From a virus (lineage: Duplodnaviria; Caudoviricetes): DNA of 64,000 nt. Below, piece after piece: positions 18,903 to 63,612 of this stretch. Every line of letters begins with the position of its first letter. The first letter of the stretch is position 1. Where the stretch lies: positions 149,117 to 213,116 of IMG/VR virus record IMGVR_UViG_3300002895_000002. One strand, written 5' to 3'. Below the pieces are notes generated by a model, which worked only from the letters and a program-made list of their open reading frames with translations, was not told where the DNA came from and ran no database searches. Position numbers and translations under genes: made by a program.

Positions 18903-20552
18903 ATGCCTTACACTTTTCTTTCTGGCGCAACTATTGATGCCAACCTGTTCTTTGAGATTATGTCGTCCGGCGACTGTTATCTCGGGTTTGCAAGATCGGC
19001 TCCTGTCTGGGGCAACTCTGCTCTTGTTCGGGTTCAACACAACCCGGCAAAAACATGGCCAACACAGATCATGGGCCAAGCAGACCCAGGTCCGGGTGGA
19101 GCTGCTCTGTTCTTTGATAAGAACGGGTATGCCGGTGTGACTAACGATCAGCGAGCGGTGTTTCTGTATAAAACTCCAGTAGCAAATGCCGACTTTGATT
19201 TGACTGGCGGGTCTTATGTTCAAGACAACCAAGCCGGGGGAATTTATGTTGGTCAGATGGTGATTGACTATATGAGTCGAAATTGGGCTCGAATCCAAGG
19301 AATGCATCCGAGGATCACGGAAAACTTCGACACTGACAATTACAAATATTATCTTGCGTCTGTGACTGTTCCTGGCGTCGGATTGATTGTTGCAAAAATT
19401 CTTCCTCGGTCGGTTGTTGAAGTTGCTTCATATAGCCAGAAGTGCATCCTTACATACCATGATGGTGTGTCATACCAGAACATGGATGATCTGTATCCGT
19501 TCTCTGTCAACGGTCTTACTCTTACCCGAAATGTTTTGGGTGAGCAGGTTGTGACTGGGTTTAACAGCAATGTAGCATTTCCGTCAAACCTACTCACATC
19601 AACGTTCTATATCCGAAACGAGTCAAACACCGCTACGTTGATTGGCCCAATGACGCTAATTCCGGGTCAAACGGAAACTGCTATCGAGAACGGCATTGAG
19701 ACCTATCTCAAGTTTGAATATGAAGAATCTAATGGAGCCCAGGTTTACCTGAAGGTCACTGACGGTGCATCTGATCTTTCCCAGCTGGCTGTCTACCACG
19801 AGTCACATTTCCGGGAAACATCAGTTCCGGTTGCTGATAACAACCCGCCGGCTCTGGATATCACATATCTCAAGAGCCCGTCGATCGACCTCAGCATCAG
19901 CAACGTGGTTGGAATGAACAACATTGTTGCATCTGATGTTTGGTTTGTGAAAGAGATTGAAGAAGCAGATGTACCGACATACCAGGCAATGGTTGATGTG
20001 TCTGTCGAGACCTTCGCATACCTTACTGGTGATGAGAAGGTGGCAGTGCTTCGTGTCGCTGCTCTCGCAACTGATACTGTCCTTCAAGTGGAAGATGGAT
20101 TTACGATCGGTGTGGGTGATGTGATCTGGTTCGACGGTGGTCCAGTCAACGTTCAGAGCGTTGATACTACTCTTGGTGCTGGGACGATCACGCTGGATGC
20201 ACCCACCAACGAGGCACTTTCGATCGATACAGTGATCCGAGCGTCCTCTGCTTCTGGATGGACCCTGAGCTACTACGCTAAGACCCAAGACATCGACAAG
20301 GCTCGGGAAGTGGGGATGAATCTTGTCATGCTTGACAAAAACGTGTCTTGTGCTGTTCCGACATACCAAGGTATATATCGTCAACTCTTTGTGTCGTACA
20401 AGCCTGGTGCTACCTTCACCCCAACTAGCACCACTTGGGATCAAACTAAATACAAGTACGACATCGGAACCCTTCTGTATCTCTCTAACAAACTACCAGT
20501 ATATCGTAGGTATGTTGCAGACGGGGTTGAGAACTTCAAACTCATCATCTAA
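18903..20552 (+). CDS. gp8-like baseplate wedge protein
   Basis: N-terminal YLGFARSAPVW; C-terminal YRQL...GTLLYLSNKLPVYR...ENFKLII. Confidence 0.6.
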   Translation: MPYTFLSGATIDANLFFEIMSSGDCYLGFARSAPVWGNSALVRVQHNPAKTWPTQIMGQADPGPGGAALFFDKNGYAGVTNDQRAVFLYKTPVANADFDLTGGSYVQDNQAGGIYVGQMVIDYMSRNWARIQGMHPRITENFDTDNYKYYLASVTVPGVGLIVAKILPRSVVEVASYSQKCILTYHDGVSYQNMDDLYPFSVNGLTLTRNVLGEQVVTGFNSNVAFPSNLLTSTFYIRNESNTATLIGPMTLIPGQTETAIENGIETYLKFEYEESNGAQVYLKVTDGASDLSQLAVYHESHFRETSVPVADNNPPALDITYLKSPSIDLSISNVVGMNNIVASDVWFVKEIEEADVPTYQAMVDVSVETFAYLTGDEKVAVLRVAALATDTVLQVEDGFTIGVGDVIWFDGGPVNVQSVDTTLGAGTITLDAPTNEALSIDTVIRASSASGWTLSYYAKTQDIDKAREVGMNLVMLDKNVSCAVPTYQGIYRQLFVSYKPGATFTPTSTTWDQTKYKYDIGTLLYLSNKLPVYRRYVADGVENFKLII

Positions 20553-28018: not shown

Positions 28019-28738
28019 ATGGCATTACCCAAACTGAACGAAACCGTAAACTTCGCAAAAATTACCCTTCTTTCCGGAAAAAAGATCGGTATCCGTCAGT
28101 GGCGGATCAAGGACGAAAAAGACCTGCTCTTCGTGACTGAAGGGGTTGATGATGAGGATGTGGTGACTGAGGCGATGGTCAACTTCCTTCGGAATTGTGT
28201 TGACGATCAGGAGCTGTTTGATACCTTGTCCGAAACCGACATCCTGGAAGTAGCTTCTCAGATGAGACAACTGTCCAAAGGTGGAACGGTCGAATTTACT
28301 TTCCGGTGCAGTAACCCTGAATGTAAGATTCCCAATGAAGGGGAAGTAAAGATTGATGAGATTGTTCGGAAGAAAGAATTCGACGGTAAGCCATACGAAG
28401 TCATCCCAGGTGTGTTCGTCACATTCAAAGAGATCTCTCACAAACGTCGAGTTGAACTGGAAAAGGCGTCAGAGAAGCTGACGGAATACAACTTCAAATA
28501 TCTGTGCAACTCCATCGAGACTGTCACAGTCAACGGAGTTACTTACACTGAGTTTACTCCAGAAGAAGTGGAACTGTTCCTGGGTGAGATCGACGACCTT
28601 ACTGCCGGCGAGAAGCTTTACGAAGAGATGGACAAGAGAGTTGCAACATTTGACCTTGATATAAAAGGGGTCTGCTCCGCCTGTAAGACGGAAACGGAGG
28701 TTGTGTTCACAAACCCTTTAGCATTTTTCGTTTTCTAG
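28019..28738 (+). CDS. gp26: Baseplate hub subunit, gp26-like
   Basis: MALPKL...RQWRIKDEKDLL, RQLSKG..VEFTFRC..C, CSAC...FF ending. Confidence 0.8.
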   Translation: MALPKLNETVNFAKITLLSGKKIGIRQWRIKDEKDLLFVTEGVDDEDVVTEAMVNFLRNCVDDQELFDTLSETDILEVASQMRQLSKGGTVEFTFRCSNPECKIPNEGEVKIDEIVRKKEFDGKPYEVIPGVFVTFKEISHKRRVELEKASEKLTEYNFKYLCNSIETVTVNGVTYTEFTPEEVELFLGEIDDLTAGEKLYEEMDKRVATFDLDIKGVCSACKTETEVVFTNPLAFFVF

Positions 28739-31900: not shown

Positions 31901-32007
31901 AGGTTGTGGTTCAGGGTGGGTCCAGCAAGGACACCGGGCCTATAGTAATCAGCAGTGGGGATAATGAAACCAGTGTATCATCATTATATCGATATATGCG
32001 TGGATAA
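28924..32007 (+). CDS. Tape-measure-like protein with glycine-rich hydrophobic segment and an RNNNPGN domain
   Basis: Coiled-coil N-terminal half, AAGG...AIVGEKGPELV motif, Gly/Ala zipper, LRNNNPGNIR. Confidence 0.7.
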   Translation: MAKNTLRASDLDTSKMNQTVAQQLLKAMQDVAAETKEVKTAMQDQVKIVNKSNQALVALGGASSDAKAHISAFGKKFKGMLDRGEESFGEALNRIKDDATLSSKAKKKLLDEELTFQKQYIKSRDKVFKIELDQFKQKQKYHEWEKAWNKKELKRRKVERLIEEKEWKRKKNRWLEETRRHNRDEEYYQQYQKRENQKKRDELEGKQHLFGKWGKALLQGHGPDKKKGFGGIVSQATQDYGSYGKLKLASVLGMHTMALVFKTPLFTMMATGWDRHLKEREVAARELDQYNEQLMREEFDRNERNQIREDEIQKRELEKGEYELKAARKRIDEENESLAFKKKILEHEWENVLEEKKLTQYKKIKRNQTSRTAEKEVEKVVLELPAHAAGGTMAGGPAIVGEKGPELVEGKKGAFVMTTTNLVRNLTKLNNGFGGIMSTVGRKQEPGKIFGSLAGRLLAKPMSLLNTLPAIKKTEDQQLIVLKAIQKGIADLKPKAAGPAAWVDTDKKAGGGAISLIKDLITNPEKVAAGMWAGSKILGTIGATKLGGKVLGKIGLGGFGAGAGAAGGAAAGAATGVAGKLGLKAGARLIPGVGIIASGLLSGGAALSKGEGWGAALGKGALSAVGTGIGQLLTGGIGGGVAGGLVGDYLGDMIFGKSAEASVEPTKGNELLDQKKKGNLQEEAYKAMIDLRDMGLPALMSMGQNADIQQKEALTVATGMKGSGPTPTELHAPPEENIVSPIVEDEKLSVWKRIGSWFGGGQAASTQLTPTVGGTAGGSRFVEIGGERRIGGTKNLRNNNPGNIRMSDHARKYGATTKDADGFAIFPTMKAGEDAQRDLLFKSNLGTSSPYGKGKAYKDKTIEEAIYTYAPPTENRSRQYADAMIRKMGGNRKLSDLSPQEQEYLRQSIADYEGKVMPRIEKATAAAPPGNNTGMNLTTKAVTKKKMMDASRVKEQAKAAYNNADTTIMAAVAAQKKAAEKKQPINVAVPPPQVVVQGGSSKDTGPIVISSGDNETSVSSLYRYMRG

Positions 32008-32751
32008 TCTTCGTTTATGTGCTTCACTCATTTTACGGCGAGTTTCATCAGAAATTGGCTTTCGGTTTCTAGCTGATTCATTTAGTTTTTGTTGATGCTC
32101 AACAGAACGAGGTTTGATTGGTTTTCCTTTTTTTGATTCACTTAGTTTTCTTCTATGTTCATCTGTTCTGGGTTCAAGTTTTCTACCTTTATTTGATTTT
32201 GATATTTTTCTTTTGGTTTCTTCAGAATGGGAAAATCCTTCTTTGGATTTTTTCATTCTTTCTAATGTTTCTTCAGACATTTTCTTACCTCTTCTAGCAT
32301 TTCCTATCTTTGCTTTAGTTTCTTCTGTATGTTTATTGATTTTTCCTTCTTCTTTCCTTTTTACCCAAGCATCTTTTAGTTTTTGTTTATGGTTTTCTGA
32401 TAATGGGCGTTTCATTTTATTTTTACTATCTTCTGTGTGATTATAATTCAGTCTCAACCAAGAGTAATCTTTAGAATTATATCTACCATTTGATGACATC
32501 ATTTTGAGTGCCATTGCTGTTTTATACCCCTTTTGTCCATTGTTTCTGTGTATTCTGGCTAAAAGCAGATGAGCAAGGAAGTGCTCACGTAAAGGAAGGT
32601 TGACTCTGTTCCATGAGCCATGTATATCTTCTATTCCATCAATTCTTGCGAACGACTTAGGAATAATATGATGATCTTCAGTTTGCTTCTTGATTTTGGG
32701 AGTGTTACGATTGCGTTCGATGATACGGTCGTAGATTGCTTGGTAGTCCAT
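31984..32751 (-). CDS. HNH homing endonuclease with NUMOD3-like repeats (family member 1)
   Basis: EDHHIIPK..WNRVNLPLREHFLAHLLLARI; repeated H(S/T)EETKxKI; AT-rich. Confidence 0.9.
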   Translation of the reverse strand: MDYQAIYDRIIERNRNTPKIKKQTEDHHIIPKSFARIDGIEDIHGSWNRVNLPLREHFLAHLLLARIHRNNGQKGYKTAMALKMMSSNGRYNSKDYSWLRLNYNHTEDSKNKMKRPLSENHKQKLKDAWVKRKEEGKINKHTEETKAKIGNARRGKKMSEETLERMKKSKEGFSHSEETKRKISKSNKGRKLEPRTDEHRRKLSESKKGKPIKPRSVEHQQKLNESARNRKPISDETRRKMSEAHKRRLSTHISI

Positions 32752-32768
32752 GACGGTTTCTCCTTACC

Positions 32769-32854
32769 GATAAATAGATGTGAACGGGGACAGCAGTTTC
32801 TCCACTGTTGATCGTCTACGCCAATAGCGATCTAACCCGTCTCATATATTTATC
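32769..32854 (+). ncRNA. Putative HEG-associated three-way-junction RNA, copy 1, including flanking convergent late promoters
   Basis: Covarying stems shared with the copies at 44127 and 57277. Confidence 0.7.
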
Positions 32855-42004: not shown

Positions 42005-43276
42005 ATGAAGATGAATTTTACACGAGATTATTTGAAGAATATCTTTTCGACTTCGATACCTGATGCATTACTTGAACATGTTGATTCTTCTAAATGTTTC
42101 GTGGTTGGTGGTGCGGTACGTGATATCCTCTTAAATATTCCTTACAATGACATAGATATAACCGTTTCAATCAATGAACAGGAGTTTAATGAACTTCCTT
42201 TTGAAAAAGTTGGAAAAAAATTCCCGGTTTATATCGTCGATGATAAAGAAGTTGCGCTAACAAGAACTGAGCGTTCAATAGGTAATGGTCATAATGCATT
42301 TGAAATTGTATCAACGGGTGTTTCCATCGAGTCTGACTTAGCCAGACGCGATTTCACGATTGGATCTTTAGCGATTGATTGTAAAGGTAACCTCATCGAC
42401 CCATTCGGCGGTGTGGAAGACCTGAACAGCCGCAAGCTCCGCGCTGTGTTTCCGGCAGCATTCCAGGAAGACCCCATCAGGATCCTCCGTGGTTGCCGCC
42501 TTGCCGCAAAGCTTGACTTCACTTTCGAGAGCAGAACCGCCGAGTTGATGTACGAAGCTGCTCCGCTGCTTGAAGGTGAGCGGAAAGAGATGATCGTAGT
42601 TGAACTCGAGAAGATGTACAAGCAGTGTGAAAAGCCGTCCGAGTACTTCTACCATCTCGCGAAGGTAGGTGCACTCGAGTACGTCTGTAGACCGCTCTTT
42701 GCTCTTCTCGGTGTTATCGCCGGTCCTGTCCAGTTCCATCACGACGAGCATGGGAACGAGATTACCGCTTTCGACCACACGATGTACGTGATCGACCGCT
42801 GCAAGGCCAATGGGTACAGCTTCGAGGTGTTCATGGCTTGTGTTGCTCATGACTTCGGCAAGGCAACCACCCCGACAGAGATCCTCCCTCATCACTATGG
42901 GCACGAGCTGCGGTCTGCTGGGATTGCCAACGAGTTCTTCGAGAATCACCGGTTCTCTGCTCGGACCAAGAAGCTGGCCATCAAGGCAGCCAAGCACCAC
43001 ATGAGCTTTCACTTCCTGACCCAGATGAAGCCACTGAAGATCGTGCGGTTTCTCCGATCGCTTCCGAGAGACCTCTTCTTCGAACTCATCGAGGTGGCTA
43101 ACTGCGACCATCCGCTGACTGAAGAGCAACGTGTCATTATCTTCAGGTTCCTGGATGCGGTCAGACAAACTCCCATCGAGGTTCCTGAGCGAATCAAGAA
43201 AGATGGGAAGAAAATAGCAGAGTTCATCGATAATGAAATCACTAAAACGTTCAAGCAACTAACGAAAGGAGTGTAA
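42005..43276 (+). CDS. cca: tRNA nucleotidyltransferase (CCA-adding enzyme) with HD domain
   Basis: VVGGAVRDILL..DIDI, DLARRDFTI, EDPIRILRGCRLAA, AHDFGK. Confidence 0.9.
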   Translation: MKMNFTRDYLKNIFSTSIPDALLEHVDSSKCFVVGGAVRDILLNIPYNDIDITVSINEQEFNELPFEKVGKKFPVYIVDDKEVALTRTERSIGNGHNAFEIVSTGVSIESDLARRDFTIGSLAIDCKGNLIDPFGGVEDLNSRKLRAVFPAAFQEDPIRILRGCRLAAKLDFTFESRTAELMYEAAPLLEGERKEMIVVELEKMYKQCEKPSEYFYHLAKVGALEYVCRPLFALLGVIAGPVQFHHDEHGNEITAFDHTMYVIDRCKANGYSFEVFMACVAHDFGKATTPTEILPHHYGHELRSAGIANEFFENHRFSARTKKLAIKAAKHHMSFHFLTQMKPLKIVRFLRSLPRDLFFELIEVANCDHPLTEEQRVIIFRFLDAVRQTPIEVPERIKKDGKKIAEFIDNEITKTFKQLTKGV

Positions 43277-43496: not shown

Positions 43497-44114
43497 CATT
43501 TGTGCTTGCATTTTTCACCGTGCCATCTTCCAAATGATCCGGGTTCACATGCTTTGCCACAGTATTTGCATATTCGTTTTGGTACTCTTTGTTTTCCTGA
43601 GATAATGTTATCTATATGTGATTTTGGTAATTTTTGTTCTTCATACGAATACTAGCTGCTGTTTTGAATTCATCAGACATTGATTTGCCTTTATTCCAAG
43701 AAGGTCTTCCTTTTCTAGTAATAGACATTTTTTGTTTGGTTTCTTCTGAGGCTTTTCTATTTTTCGCTTTTTTGATATCCGCTGTTTGGTTTCTTCTGAG
43801 TGAGAATAGTTTAGTTTGAGCCAAGTATATTTTCTAGAATTATATCTACCATTTGTAGACATCATTTTGAATGCTTTTGCCATTCTTGGGCCCTTAGCTA
43901 TATGACCTCGCCATATACGGGCAAGAAGCAGATGGGCGATGAAATGTTCACGCAAAGGAAGGTTGACTCGATTCCAGGAACCGTTAATATCTTGAATTCC
44001 ATCAAGCTTTGCGAATGAACGAGGGATGATGTGATGGTCTTCCGTTTGTTTCTTGATCCTGGGAGTGTTTCTGTTTCGTTTGATGATGCGGTCGTAGATT
44101 GCTTGGTAATCCAT
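43497..44114 (-). CDS. HNH homing endonuclease (family member 2), broken by two homopolymer indels
   Basis: N-terminus nearly identical to the 32751 gene. Adding one A at the runs 43768-43773 and 43631-43635 restores NUMOD3 repeats and a C-terminal CKYC...WHGEKC finger. Confidence 0.8.
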
Positions 44115-44126
44115 GACATTCTCCCT

Positions 44127-44219
44127 GATAAATAGATGTGACCGGGACAGCGGAGATATTCTCCCCTCCGTTGGCTGTCGACCCCCATCGCAGCCTTACC
44201 GGTTCCATTCTTATTTATA
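44127..44219 (+). ncRNA. Putative HEG-associated three-way-junction RNA, copy 2
   Basis: Covarying stems, conserved GACAG/TT/TTA junction segments, flanking convergent late promoters. Confidence 0.75.
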
Positions 44220-44225
44220 AATCTA

Positions 44226-44254
44226 TTGACATTATCAAGAAAAGAACATATAAT
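44226..44254 (+). promoter_or_regulatory. Consensus sigma70 promoter
   Basis: TTGACA-N17-TATAAT. Confidence 0.9.
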
Positions 44255-44276
44255 CAAATAAAAAAGGAGAATGAAA

Positions 44277-50602: not shown

Positions 50603-50952
50603 TCATTCCATGCTTCGTTTGTGGTTCTGATAAAATTGTCATTGCCCCGGCTGAATGCAGTAATCGTTTCATAATAACGTGTCAATGCGGCGATACCCCT
50701 CATCAACCAGGTTCTGACACCGAGCCGATGTGCTTTGTTTCTATCGATGCGGCCATAGCTCAATGGAATCTTCGGGTTCACGGCAAGATGATGAGACTCA
50801 TCAATCGTCAAAAGAACAGAATAGATAGTCTTGAAAAATTTATTCTCAATGTCCCTCATTCCAAGTCATGTTTGGATAGTTTGGCTTATGGTGGAAATGT
50901 TGCTGTGGTAAAAATCTCATTCTCGGAGCAGGACAATGAAAGAAGCCAGTAA
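50599..50952 (+). CDS. Lar-like zinc-finger hypothetical protein
   Basis: PCFVCGS...CQC...AAIAQWN. Confidence 0.5.
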   Translation: MIIPCFVCGSDKIVIAPAECSNRFIITCQCGDTPHQPGSDTEPMCFVSIDAAIAQWNLRVHGKMMRLINRQKNRIDSLEKFILNVPHSKSCLDSLAYGGNVAVVKISFSEQDNERSQ

Positions 50953-53322: not shown

Positions 53323-53435
53323 AGACTTACGATAACAAACAACTTGGAGGTTATCATGAAACTCATTCCCGCTATTATAAGTAATGCCAAGTCGAACAGA
53401 GTACCTCAAAGTTACCTGTTCTATTTATAATTTTG

Positions 53436-53464
53436 TTGACATTTCCTTTAGAAAATAATATAAT
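53436..53464 (+). promoter_or_regulatory. Consensus sigma70 promoter
   Basis: TTGACA-N17-TATAAT. Confidence 0.85.
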
Positions 53465-55553: not shown

Positions 55554-56657
55554 ATGCTCAACGTAGTGGAATACCTCAAGTCCGGCAAGACCTTCGCTGA
55601 TCTCGAAGCAGAGTTCGGCATCAAGTCCAAGCCGCATCCCTCCGAGCCGCTCGTCATTCTCAACTACGACCAGATCGAATCTCCCAAGACTCACCCGATC
55701 GTTCGGGAGTGCCGCGGTCTCGTCCTGCACTCCGAGACATTCGACGTTGTTGCCAAAGGTTTCGACCGCTTCTTCAACGAGGGTGAGGCTTACGAGCTGA
55801 CCAAGGACTTCGACTGGACCCGCCCGGTGGATGTCCGCACCAAGGAAGACGGTTCCTACATCAACCTCTTCAGGTTCGACGAGAAGGTCTTCATCACCAC
55901 CCGTGGTTCCTGGGCTGACGGTGAATGTGGCTTCTCCGGGAAGACCTGGGCCGAGATCGTGCTGGAACTCTTCCCATCTCAGCTCAACCCAGCTGACATC
56001 CCGCCCGGCGTGAACATGATCTTCGAGCTTTGCACCGTGCACAACAAGGTAGTCCGCTCCTACCCTGAGCCGAAACTGGTACTCCTCGGCATCACCATTC
56101 ATGGTGTGGAGATGGATCCGATGGAGGTGGATGCTTTTGCGTTTACTTGGGATATTTCCCGCCCTGAAAAATTCCTGTGTGGATCCATTGAAGCAGTCCA
56201 GGAACTAATCGGCGAGAAATCTGCCAATGATCCTACCTGGGAAGGTCTGGTTCTCCGTGATGCCAACGGGATGCGCCTGAAGGTCAAGTCTGCTACCTAC
56301 GTGGCTCTGCATCACATGAGAGGCGAAGGTGATAACTTGTTCAATCCCAAGTACATCATCCCCTTCATCCTCAAGGGCGAATGTGAAGAGGTTCTCACCT
56401 ACTTCCCGGAGATCGAGGAGAAGCTGAATGAGGTCGGTGAAGCCGTCGGTGCTCTTTGGCTTGAACTCAGCCAATACTTCTCCAAGGTCGGCTCCCAGGG
56501 CATCACCGACCAGAAGGAGTTCGCTCTGGCCGTGAAGGACTGCCGCTTGTCCTCCATCCTCTTCCGTCTGAAAAAGGAGAACCGCCTGACTTTCAAAGAG
56601 CTCGATGCAGAGTTCCGCTCCGACCCGGTGAGGATCCACAAGATTCTCTACCGGTAA
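55554..56657 (+). CDS. rnlA: RNA ligase 1 (T4 RnlA family)
   Basis: LNYDQI, KGFDRFFN, KEDGS, FELC, EGLVL, KVKS..Y. Confidence 0.9.
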   Translation: MLNVVEYLKSGKTFADLEAEFGIKSKPHPSEPLVILNYDQIESPKTHPIVRECRGLVLHSETFDVVAKGFDRFFNEGEAYELTKDFDWTRPVDVRTKEDGSYINLFRFDEKVFITTRGSWADGECGFSGKTWAEIVLELFPSQLNPADIPPGVNMIFELCTVHNKVVRSYPEPKLVLLGITIHGVEMDPMEVDAFAFTWDISRPEKFLCGSIEAVQELIGEKSANDPTWEGLVLRDANGMRLKVKSATYVALHHMRGEGDNLFNPKYIIPFILKGECEEVLTYFPEIEEKLNEVGEAVGALWLELSQYFSKVGSQGITDQKEFALAVKDCRLSSILFRLKKENRLTFKELDAEFRSDPVRIHKILYR

Positions 56658-57264
56658 AAAGTAGTTGACACCAAGGCATCACCGTGTTTTTTTCTTTACA
56701 ATTTTCATAATGATATCGTTTCATATTACCGCAACCGCCAATTTTGCCACAATAAGGGCATTTTATTTTATCGAATGTTTTTCCTTTTGAACTTTCACTG
56801 ATTTTTCGTTTTGTTTCCTCGGATCTAGGTATACCCCTCGGAGTTTTATCTGAAATTATTTTTGCTTTACTAATTTTTCGTTTTGTTTCTTCGGATCTTG
56901 GACCTTTACCACGTCTTATCAGACTCATTTTATTTTTGGTTTCATCTGATAACTTGTAAGATAACTTTATCCAAGCATAGTTTTTAGAAGTATACCAACC
57001 ACAGTTAGCCATTTGACGAAAGGCCCGAGCCATTTTAGGACCTTTGACTTTATGCCCTCTCCATATACGAGCGAGAAGCAAATGAGCAATGAAGTGTTCA
57101 CGATGTGGCAGATGAACAATGTTCCAAGATCCGTTGATGTCTTCTATCCCATCGAGCTTCGCAAATGACTTTGGGATGATATGATGCCCGTTGGTTTGAA
57201 ACTTGACTTTGGAATGATCTTTGTACTTTGAAATGAGCTGATTGTAGATAGACTGGTAATTCAT
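56593..57264 (-). CDS. HNH homing endonuclease (family member 3) with NUMOD3 repeats and a C-terminal Cys/His finger
   Basis: HHIIPK..WNIVHLPHREHFIAHLLLARIW, RSEETKRKIS x2, CPYCGK...YHYENC. Confidence 0.9.
   Translation of the reverse strand: MNYQSIYNQLISKYKDHSKVKFQTNGHHIIPKSFAKLDGIEDINGSWNIVHLPHREHFIAHLLLARIWRGHKVKGPKMARAFRQMANCGWYTSKNYAWIKLSYKLSDETKNKMSLIRRGKGPRSEETKRKISKAKIISDKTPRGIPRSEETKRKISESSKGKTFDKIKCPYCGKIGGCGNMKRYHYENCKEKNTVMPWCQLLFTGRESCGSSPGRSGTLHRAL
56665..56687 (+). promoter_or_regulatory. Orphaned -35 box and spacer, with the -10 box replaced by the HEG 3' end
   Basis: AAAAAGTAG-TTGACA-N17 ending ...TGT like the other promoters, then a T run instead of a -10 box. Confidence 0.55.
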
Positions 57265-57276
57265 GACAGTTCCCTT

Positions 57277-57369
57277 GATAAATAGATGTGACGAGGACAG
57301 CAGGGTTGTTCCCTTCTCTGTTGGTCGTGTGTTCCCGCACCGACCTTACTCGTTCCATTCTTATTTATA
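57277..57369 (+). ncRNA. Putative HEG-associated three-way-junction RNA, copy 3
   Basis: Covarying stems; a G-U pair on the + strand. Confidence 0.75.
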
Positions 57370-57375
57370 ATTTCC

Positions 57376-57404
57376 TTGACATTTTCCATACTTTTTGTTA
57401 CTAT
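57376..57404 (+). promoter_or_regulatory. Sigma70-type early promoter, AT-rich replacement carried at the HEG end
   Basis: TTGACA-N17-TACTAT. Confidence 0.8.
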
Positions 57405-62791: not shown

Positions 62792-62829
62792 AGTTCTTTT
62801 ATAAATATAAAATAAATTATAAAGGAACT
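62792..62829 (+). promoter_or_regulatory. RBS-sequestering hairpin containing late promoter TATAAATA (62800-62807)
   Basis: AGTTCTTTTATAA / TTATAAAGGAACT, 13-bp stem covering AAAGGA. Confidence 0.75.
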
Positions 62830-62832
62830 GTC

Positions 62833-63612
62833 ATGAACTACCAGTCTATCTATGATCGGCTTATTGCCAAGTTCAAAGATCATCCAAAAGTCAAGTGTCA
62901 AACCAACGATCATCATATCATCCCAAAATGTTTCAAAAAGATTGATGACATCGAAGACATTGATGGACAATGGAACAGAGTGCATTTACCTCATCGTGAA
63001 CACTTCATTGCTCATTTGCTTCTTGCCCGTATATGGCGGGGACATAGAGCCAAAGGACCGATGATGGCGAAAGCATTCAACCGTATGTCTAACTGCGGAT
63101 GGTATACATCCAAAGATTATGAATGGATAAAGTCTTCATTAAATTATTCCCATTCTGAAGAAACCAAACAAAAACTTTCTGAAATCAACATTGGAAAGAA
63201 AATGTCAAAAGAATCATGTCAAAAAATGTCAGATTCAAGAAAAGGAAAACCAATACCCAAATTGGTAGGCAGAAAAAGTTCAGTTGAAAAGATACAAAAA
63301 CAAAAAGATTGGTATGCTTCATTATCAGATGATGAAAAACAAATAATGAATCAAAAAAAGAAAGATTGGTATAATTCATTATCTCAAGAAGAAAAACAGG
63401 TAATAAGTGAAAAGATAAGCAAGAGGAATAAACGTCCAAAAACAGAAAAGGAAAAACAGGCAACAAGAGAAGCAATAACAAAATATTGGGCCGAAAATAA
63501 ACACAAAGATCCTCGTGTTGGCAAACCTAGAAGCAAAGAAACTATTGAAAAAATAAAAGAAACAAAAAGGAGAAAACGACTTGAGAAAATTAGCGACAGT
63601 AAGAATAATTAA
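62833..63612 (+). CDS. HNH homing endonuclease (family member 4)
   Basis: DHHIIPK..WNRVHLPHREHFIAHLLLARIW, HSEETKQKLS. Confidence 0.9.
   Translation: MNYQSIYDRLIAKFKDHPKVKCQTNDHHIIPKCFKKIDDIEDIDGQWNRVHLPHREHFIAHLLLARIWRGHRAKGPMMAKAFNRMSNCGWYTSKDYEWIKSSLNYSHSEETKQKLSEINIGKKMSKESCQKMSDSRKGKPIPKLVGRKSSVEKIQKQKDWYASLSDDEKQIMNQKKKDWYNSLSQEEKQVISEKISKRNKRPKTEKEKQATREAITKYWAENKHKDPRVGKPRSKETIEKIKETKRRKRLEKISDSKNN

Follow-up and report, generated by a model that had tools for sequence, protein, structure and literature searches.

A short element that stands directly before a backwards homing endonuclease gene in a large phage genome raises the question of whether it acts as an RNA and, if so, from which strand and upon what target. 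We examined it in a window that forms the final 64 kb of a 213-kb virus record (hereafter G000) and contains three copies, at 32769-32854, 44127-44219 and 57277-57369, each about 90 nt long including its flanking motifs. A preliminary description of this DNA had proposed that all three share one three-way junction, with stems that differ in sequence while their pairing is kept; the stems and linkers are found exactly as it gave them. The parts of each copy, with P1, P2 and P3 denoting the junction stems, are as follows.

Copy 1
31984-32751, - strand: HNH/NUMOD3 homing endonuclease gene, 255 aa.
32756-32763, - strand: nuclease ribosome-binding region, reading GTTTCTCC on the + strand, in the loop of a small CGGT/ACCG hairpin.
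32769-32776, + strand: GATAAATA motif, facing rightward.
32784-32840, + strand: three-way junction, with P1 at 32784-88/32836-40, P2 at 32794-97/32804-07 (loop 32798-803) and P3 at 32810-32.
32796-32803, + strand: exact repeat of 32756-32763.
32847-32854, - strand: GATAAATA motif on the nuclease strand.

Copy 2
43641-44114, - strand: free-standing HNH-type homing endonuclease gene, 157 aa (PHROG phrog_655 'homing endonuclease', E=3e-30).
44118-44125, - strand: nuclease Shine-Dalgarno (SD) and spacer, reading ATTCTCCC on the + strand and recurring in the P2 loop (longest common word 8 nt).
44127-44134, + strand: GATAAATA motif of late-promoter type, facing rightward, 6 nt before P1.
44141-44203, + strand: three-way junction (from folds and covariation), with P1 at 44141-45/44199-203, GACAG at 44146-50, P2 at 44151-55/44166-70, TT at 44171-72, P3 at 44173-95 and TTA at 44196-98.
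44156-44165, + strand: P2 loop, of which 44158-44165 (ATTCTCCC) is identical to 44118-44125.
44212-44219, - strand: TATAAATA late-promoter motif, facing leftward through the junction to the nuclease gene.
44226-44254, + strand: perfect sigma-70 promoter (TTGACA, 17 nt, TATAAT; 12/12 matches) for a + strand gene at 44271.

Copy 3
56593-57264, - strand: HNH/NUMOD3 homing endonuclease gene, 223 aa.
57269-57276, - strand: nuclease ribosome-binding region, reading GTTCCCTT on the + strand.
57277-57284, + strand: GATAAATA motif, facing rightward.
57291-57353, + strand: three-way junction, with P1 at 57291-95/57349-53, P2 at 57301-05/57316-20 (loop 57306-15) and P3 at 57323-45.
57308-57315, + strand: exact repeat of 57269-57276.
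57362-57369, - strand: TATAAATA motif on the nuclease strand.
57376-57404, + strand: sigma-70-like promoter (TTGACA, 17 nt, TACTAT; 10/12 matches) just right of the element.

At two of these loci the 3' end of the nuclease gene overlaps the 3' end of the upstream + strand gene, which encodes a 1027-aa protein with a lysin-like domain in one case (31984-32007) and a T4 RnlA-like RNA ligase in the other (56593-56657); since no terminator lies between the genes, convergent transcripts must collide or overlap there. Also encoded in this part of the genome is an HD-domain tRNA nucleotidyltransferase of the CCA-adding type (42005-43276), which together with the RnlA-type ligase (55554-56657) looks like a tRNA repair kit; a search for tRNA and tmRNA genes returned none, and there is no tRNA gene within the window. 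In a contig of a related phage (G008, 17513-19578; L175 and L176) the gene for the CCA-adding enzyme is apparently in two pieces about 1.1 kb apart, close to a copy of the element at 20050 and to a 64-aa GIY-YIG fragment, an arrangement that may reflect an intron or an endonuclease insertion. Empty sites were sought in related phages for the borders of the cassette; the genomes are too diverged, with no synteny around the genes for the CCA-adding enzyme and the RNA ligase.

The first step was to ask whether the junction is real. Each of the three window copies folds into it from either strand (compared with dinucleotide shuffles, the z-scores run from -4.0 to -5.2), and the free energies of the two strands do not discriminate between them. 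A covariance model (R1) made from 13 copies, the check that the preliminary description had called for, was used together with motif scans on G000 and on IMG/VR contigs. It brought the total in G000 to 16 copies, all on the + strand, and added at least 24 further copies in related uncultured phage contigs, seven of them in a 204-kb contig (G003) and one to five in each of the others, many of which are about 200 kb long. In an alignment of 40 sequences from at least ten contigs (A7), all 18 junction pairs show compensatory changes on both sides; 95.1% of the paired cells are filled by pairs, compared with 62.1% after shuffling and 31-49% when the partners are slid by one to three columns, and the covariation score is 0.910 vs 0.256. 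RNAalifold independently predicts the identical junction from this alignment. The core of about 65 nt runs P1, GACAG, P2, UU, P3, UUA; within the first linker GACA never varies, and UU and UUA are almost as constant, and no consistent pseudoknot partner is suggested for the P3 loops. Given this covariation and the agreement of RNAalifold, the junction structure is real and under selection.

The same alignment bears on the strand. An A-C cell on the + strand corresponds to a G-U pair on the nuclease strand, and on the + strand there are 23 G-U against 9 A-C cells (13:5 in set 1, comprising 25 copies, and 10:4 in set 2, which is independent and made up of 15 copies found in other phages); leaving aside an uncertain apical P2 pair brings the counts to about 20 and 6. 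This bias favours the + strand, antisense to the nuclease, as had been argued earlier from a single G-U pair of one window copy; it is suggestive and not decisive, because the events are few and many of them are shared by descent. Wobble pairs are rare on either strand, at about 4% of cells.

Such scarcity would also be expected if selection acted on the DNA itself, for example on a cruciform or otherwise branched structure, or on a dispersed repeat through which cassettes recombine and are shuffled more readily, as has been proposed for the PeSL cassettes of T4-type phages. The many dispersed copies speak for this idea, as do the association of one leader type, that with loop TTCACCTC, with three nuclease families, and a truncated remnant that stands beside an early promoter in the window. 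However, the stem sequences differ among copies, which destroys the homology on which recombination would depend, the conserved single-stranded linkers and the match between loop and ribosome-binding site described below are left without a rationale, and the excess of G-U over A-C points to RNA. We therefore consider a role at the DNA level very unlikely. PeSL cassettes, which Arbiol et al. reportedly described in 2010, are said to consist of a terminator stem-loop and a strong early sigma-70 promoter; the element is a three-way junction without a U-tract terminator, and an early promoter of sigma-70 type follows 3 of the 16 copies in G000. The remnant itself, at 53395-53460, resembles the right end of the element: a hairpin (GAACAG...CTGTTC) is followed by TATTTATA and then by a perfect early promoter (TTGACA-17-TATAAT), with neither a junction nor a nuclease gene. 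It may be what is left of a lost cassette, or else a PeSL-like unit ancestral to the cassette.

What, then, does the element accompany? Every good copy in G000 and in the related contigs lies directly 5' of an opposite-strand gene that has its own SD. The partners include phrog_655 HNH genes with NUMOD3 repeats (the three window copies), SegE-like and LEM-3-like GIY-YIG genes and phrog_559/DUF723 treble-clef nucleases; one partner is a small MucR-like zinc-finger protein, and some partner genes are truncated. The genes of G000 lie nearly all on the + strand, and within this genome the element is present at 16 of 17 backwards endonuclease genes and at none of the three forward ones. The earlier proposal that it travels with an HNH family thus holds as far as linkage to homing endonuclease genes is concerned; the restriction to HNH does not, with at least four families served and the element absent from all of the 80 distant HNH relatives found in other viral contigs. 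Because of this absence, the element is to be taken as a cassette of one phage lineage; it does not characterise the HNH family. No close member of that lineage has been cultured: the phages in GenBank gave no DNA match to the element, and the nearest cultured relatives are cyanophages with 23% protein identity.

The junction is missing from two HNH homing endonuclease genes that belong to the same family, at 62800-63594 of the window (genome 211916-212710) and at genome 97660-98468; of these, a + strand gene has a plain TATAAATA 25 nt ahead of its start and a - strand gene a plain GATAAATA, and they are natural controls for the element's contribution. Elsewhere in the genome, nearly identical elements at 50923 and 64379 (L028 and L014) have the same loop and the same type of ribosome-binding site, stand before unrelated nucleases (SegE-like and LEM-3-like GIY-YIG), and are both followed by paralogous 59-aa cysteine-rich proteins. 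This suggests either a joint duplication of leader and right-hand gene or an exchange of the nuclease ORF behind a leader that stayed the same.

The preliminary description had left open whether the RNA is a regulator or a cofactor of the nuclease, and of these a regulator is the better option. A nuclease-bound cofactor or guide RNA, in the manner of HEARO/omega RNA with IscB, would account for the tight linkage of RNA and nuclease genes. A protein cofactor role is unlikely, however, because several nuclease families are served, at least four of them unrelated and some represented by truncated genes, and because the 80 HNH relatives elsewhere do without the element; moreover, the sole variable, guide-like segment matches the element's own ribosome-binding site and no external target, and neither HEARO nor any other Rfam family matches. 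Taken together, these points make a cofactor barely credible. HEARO itself (RF02033), an RNA of about 300 nt with an IscB-type HNH/RuvC neighbour, was rejected on the lack of an Rfam match, the core of about 65 nt and the small homing endonuclease partners. At the gathering score, Rfam 15 has no match in the 64-kb window, which bears out the earlier impression that this is no named family; a permissive search with 181 nt around copy 2 gave a best E of 2.3, for a hit of 14.5 bits where the gathering score is 74, and int-alpA (RF02996, a 71-position model) has no match at E<=10 in the 213-kb genome or around copy 2. A tRNA-like 3' CCA after P1 was discarded since only a few copies have it, as was a hammerhead or other ribozyme core, which the linkers do not fit and Rfam does not support. 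Literature searches found no published description of the element. This is, then, an uncatalogued RNA family.

Two further features, both absent from the preliminary description, carry the mechanistic argument. The first is that the junction is flanked by two inward-facing late-promoter motifs of T4 type (NATAAATA), each about 6-7 nt from P1. On the + side the motif lies 6-8 nt ahead of P1 in 35 of 39 copies (its first base is A or C in 6 of 39, and it is missing in 4), and 37 of 39 copies have it on the nuclease side, at a distance of mostly 5-8 nt (range 0-9) from the other end of P1, with the form [GT]ATAAATA on the nuclease strand in 36 of 39. Spacing to P1 is thus tighter on the + side, and the motif itself is slightly better kept on the nuclease side. 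Across G000 the + strand has 68 [GT]ATAAATA motifs, which an SD and ATG mostly follow after 10-30 nt, and the - strand has 21, of which 16 are inside elements; the right-facing motif type of copy 2, too, precedes many + strand genes. By its placement, [GT]ATAAATA is to all appearances the gene-proximal promoter motif of this phage. In published work, TATAAATA is the late promoter of T4 and KVP40 and NATAAATA that of cyanomyoviruses (PMC2984593). Given the placement of the motifs, their use across the genome and these published promoters, what appears to be an outer stem (P0) is best read as two inward-facing late promoters, each of which would start a transcript at the base of the junction. 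Judging by the motif, both would be active late, and presumably both fire.

A + strand transcript starting there would conceivably serve another end. The + strand late promoter and the 5' structure could keep the genes beyond a backwards nuclease expressed, with their mRNA stabilised or insulated, the junction being a generic 5' stabiliser for both divergent transcripts. This fits with the presence of a + strand gene within 6-60 nt after every copy in G000, with the confinement to backwards nuclease genes noted above, with the fact that the + side motif of copy 1 is the only such motif ahead of the baseplate and tail genes, and with the T4 literature, in which invading endonucleases must supply or preserve the promoters of their neighbours (PMC2988022). 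Yet copies 2 and 3 are followed by strong sigma-70 promoters of their own, and in at least eight loci of related phages no + strand gene follows: the right-hand genes there run in the direction of the nuclease, so that the + side promoter, whose motif is still intact, has no gene to serve. Nor does this explanation account for the cognate match between loop and ribosome-binding site, and the reverse complement of P2 has no specific match to the start region of the downstream + strand gene (5.16 cognate vs 4.86 non-cognate). For these reasons we regard service to the neighbouring genes as distinctly improbable. The fate of a + strand transcript may nevertheless differ from that of a discrete small RNA: no general terminator was found 3' of the junction on the + strand, terminators following in only some loci of related phages, and for this reason the RNA may be the leader or 5' part of the neighbour's late mRNA. 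A search of sequencing runs gave a single DNA run, sharing a small proportion of words, and no matching RNA run.

The second feature is the content of the P2 loop. Nearly all copies carry in this loop a same-sense repeat of 5-10 nt of + strand sequence from over the cognate SD and its spacer, some 40 nt away; the pairs in the window are GTTTCTCC (32756-63 and 32796-803), ATTCTCCC (44118-25 and 44158-65) and GTTCCCTT (57269-76 and 57308-15). Since the loop is identical to the + strand over the SD, a transcript of the element strand would be complementary to the nuclease ribosome-binding site. The match is specific to the cognate site: the longest common word averages 7.6 nt for cognate against 4.76 nt for non-cognate pairs in set 1 and 7.13 against 4.40 nt in set 2, and in neither set did any of 20,000 permutations reach the observed value. 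Nor is it confined to the SD core, as the 4 nt beyond the core are identical at 77 of about 97 positions where 33 would be expected (0 of 20,000 permutations). Over 40 copies, the energy of the loop-site duplex is -12.2 kcal/mol for cognate and -7.0 kcal/mol for non-cognate pairs (again 0 of 20,000), and the cognate duplex of copy 2, at -18.7 kcal/mol, is the best among the 40 ribosome-binding sites. Sister copies show parallel single-base changes in loop and site, such as ATAGCTCC vs ATTGCTCC and CCCCT vs CCCTT. P3, by comparison with the nuclease start region, gave no signal.

That two identical sequences vary so closely in step is best accounted for if they pair with a complement. On the same strand, between -400 and +300 nt, neither loop nor site has a complementary partner, and the only partner is therefore the opposite-strand transcript; it follows that the P2 loop of a + strand RNA would pair with the ribosome-binding site of the nuclease mRNA. 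The SD itself lies outside the junction and is mostly unpaired in the folds. In one subfamily (window 32749-32769; genome copies at 28664, 30347, 101143 and 102658) a small hairpin with a CGGT or GGT stem holds the nuclease ribosome-binding site in its loop; as this hairpin resembles the P2 hairpin, the proposed contact there would be loop-to-loop. Two copies have lost the + side motif with different outcomes for the loop: in L165 the loop match is gone as well, and in the copy at genome position 21279 it is retained.

An alternative that takes the repeat seriously is that the junction in nuclease sense is the functional RNA, a cis-acting 5' leader on the nuclease mRNA with a P2' loop that displays a copy of the message's own ribosome-binding site. 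The copy could be a standby or decoy site for the 30S subunit, part of a 5' stabiliser, or the other of two sites bound by a dimeric repressor that recognises RNA, for instance CsrA; on this view the + side motif would be incidental, or there only to form the outer A/U stem, P0. This is consistent with the position of the element, always between a late-promoter motif and the nuclease SD and hence within the nuclease mRNA leader, and with the near-constant motif on the nuclease side. It is consistent as well with the scarcity of wobble pairs, which fits a need for both strands to fold, and with the homing endonucleases of the T4 family, which stand under late promoters with leader structures, in seg43 of Aeromonas phage 25 the ribosome-binding site being free and the hairpin standing just upstream of it (PMC2988022). 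However, a decoy or standby site needs an SD-like core only, which leaves the 4 nt of co-varying spacer unexplained; GGA, which CsrA/RsmA two-site leaders have both in a hairpin loop and at the SD, is absent from several loops (GAGGUG, GGGGUAA and GAGGUA types); the SD is not sequestered and has no anti-SD partner on its own strand; the wobble bias runs in the opposite direction; and the + side motif is held 6-8 nt from P1 even where no + strand gene follows. A cis-acting leader thus seems to us a rather unlikely answer when taken as the whole explanation, and such a role may coexist with an antisense one. Sequestration of the SD on its own strand in T4 style, or a riboswitch-like switch, was likewise considered and set aside, as no anti-SD partner was found.

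The reading that we favour, and to which we give about an even chance, is that the element encodes a structured antisense RNA that represses translation of the nuclease, analogous to RNA-OUT of IS10, with targeting through a loop instead of through overlap. It presupposes a + strand RNA that is made and is the species that acts, with repression as the outcome, and we infer both from sequence. The element would be a self-contained control cassette for free-standing homing endonuclease genes, and would work as follows. The late promoter on the nuclease strand would make the nuclease mRNA, with the mirror image of the junction as its leader, and that on the + strand would initiate, at P1's first base, an RNA with the junction as its 5' domain. 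In this RNA, P1, P3 and the linkers GACAG, UU and UUA would form a stable scaffold displaying the P2 loop, which is predicted to be complementary to the 5-10 nt over the SD and spacer of the cognate mRNA; pairing of loop and site would block binding of the 30S subunit. The 65-nt overlap of the two RNAs may add a duplex open to RNase III, and transcriptional interference could add to the effect of the convergent RNA. Between them, blocked initiation and cleavage of the duplex would keep the nuclease at a low level. Because the target is addressed by a copy in the loop, such a cassette would be independent of the coding sequence and re-usable, and loops of the TTCACCTC type indeed occur with SegE-like, LEM-3-like and HNH genes; service to unrelated nuclease families fits control at the level of RNA and not through a protein partner. 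One feature sits less easily with antisense repression: within G000 a dedicated loop looks redundant, since antisense RNA from read-through on the + strand would already cover the nuclease ribosome-binding site.

Antisense control of neighbouring genes is familiar from type I toxin-antitoxin pairs such as tisB/IstR-1 and zorO/OrzO, in which an oppositely transcribed neighbouring small RNA represses translation of the toxic gene through a short matched segment. Those pairs are bacterial, chromosomal and differently folded; the element is phage-borne, present in many copies with private loops, and tied to mobile nucleases. The nearest precedent is IS10/Tn10, where the antisense RNA-OUT controls the transposase message RNA-IN (Simons and Kleckner, 1983; Ma and Simons, 1990; as cited in PMC5006887). 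In both cases a mobile element has face-to-face promoters and directs a small structured antisense RNA, predicted in ours, against the translation initiation region of its own DNA-cutting enzyme to keep ribosomes from binding, and two hallmarks of the IS10 arrangement are found here in the sequence: an opposing promoter motif (35/39) and complementarity to the initiation region that is cognate-specific in two sets. As outlined in PMC5006887, however, RNA-OUT is a single hairpin that reaches the ribosome-binding site by a direct overlap of 35 nt, whereas the opposite-strand start of the element lies beyond the site, so that the complementarity of its predicted transcript comes from the copy of the site in a loop of the three-way junction. 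The promoters, moreover, are of phage late type and the enzyme is a homing endonuclease.

Within the T4 family itself, leader hairpins with embedded late promoters are known for I-TevI, I-TevII, I-TevIII, segB, mobE of Aeh1 and seg43 of phage 25; the hairpin hides the ribosome-binding site on read-through transcripts, and the late promoter inside it yields transcripts in which the site is free, an arrangement that makes nuclease expression late and low (PMC2988022). The element resembles these leaders in having a late promoter, here known as a motif only, directly before the nuclease gene and beside a conserved RNA structure. It is unlike them in that its SD is outside the structure without a same-strand partner, and in being a three-way junction common to several nuclease families with a second, opposing promoter motif. 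Cyanophage S-PM2, in turn, makes CfrI, an antisense RNA of about 225 nt lying across an endonuclease gene and psbA (Millard et al., 2010, as cited in PMC2984593). Here, too, an antisense RNA, predicted in our case, is found at a homing endonuclease gene of a T4-like phage that uses NATAAATA late promoters; the account of CfrI in PMC2984593 reports no counterpart of the conserved junction or of targeting by a loop, and gives its function as unknown. The principle, antisense control of the nuclease of a mobile element, is known in kind and would here be varied.

A broader proposal, for which we would put the chances somewhat short of even, is that the element is a natural programmable antisense module: a conserved three-way-junction scaffold transcribed from a late promoter, of which the one variable loop is re-written to fit the ribosome-binding site of each nuclease, so that a private RNA governor would move with the cassette. 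If this is true, the private loops might also silence the same nuclease when it arrives on a co-infecting phage. Homing endonucleases are among the commonest selfish genes of large phages, and how their toxicity is restrained is known in detail for only a few T4 genes, through hairpins and late promoters. To these the element would add a solution in which RNA is set against RNA, by means of a compact scaffold with a re-writable targeting loop that is common to unrelated nucleases. Up to 16 copies are carried per genome in this lineage of uncultured phages of about 200 kb. The element offers Rfam a new RNA family with unusually clean covariation. The design may serve for gene-specific translational repression, and late promoters that face each other in pairs can be taken, in phage genomes, to mark antisense control.
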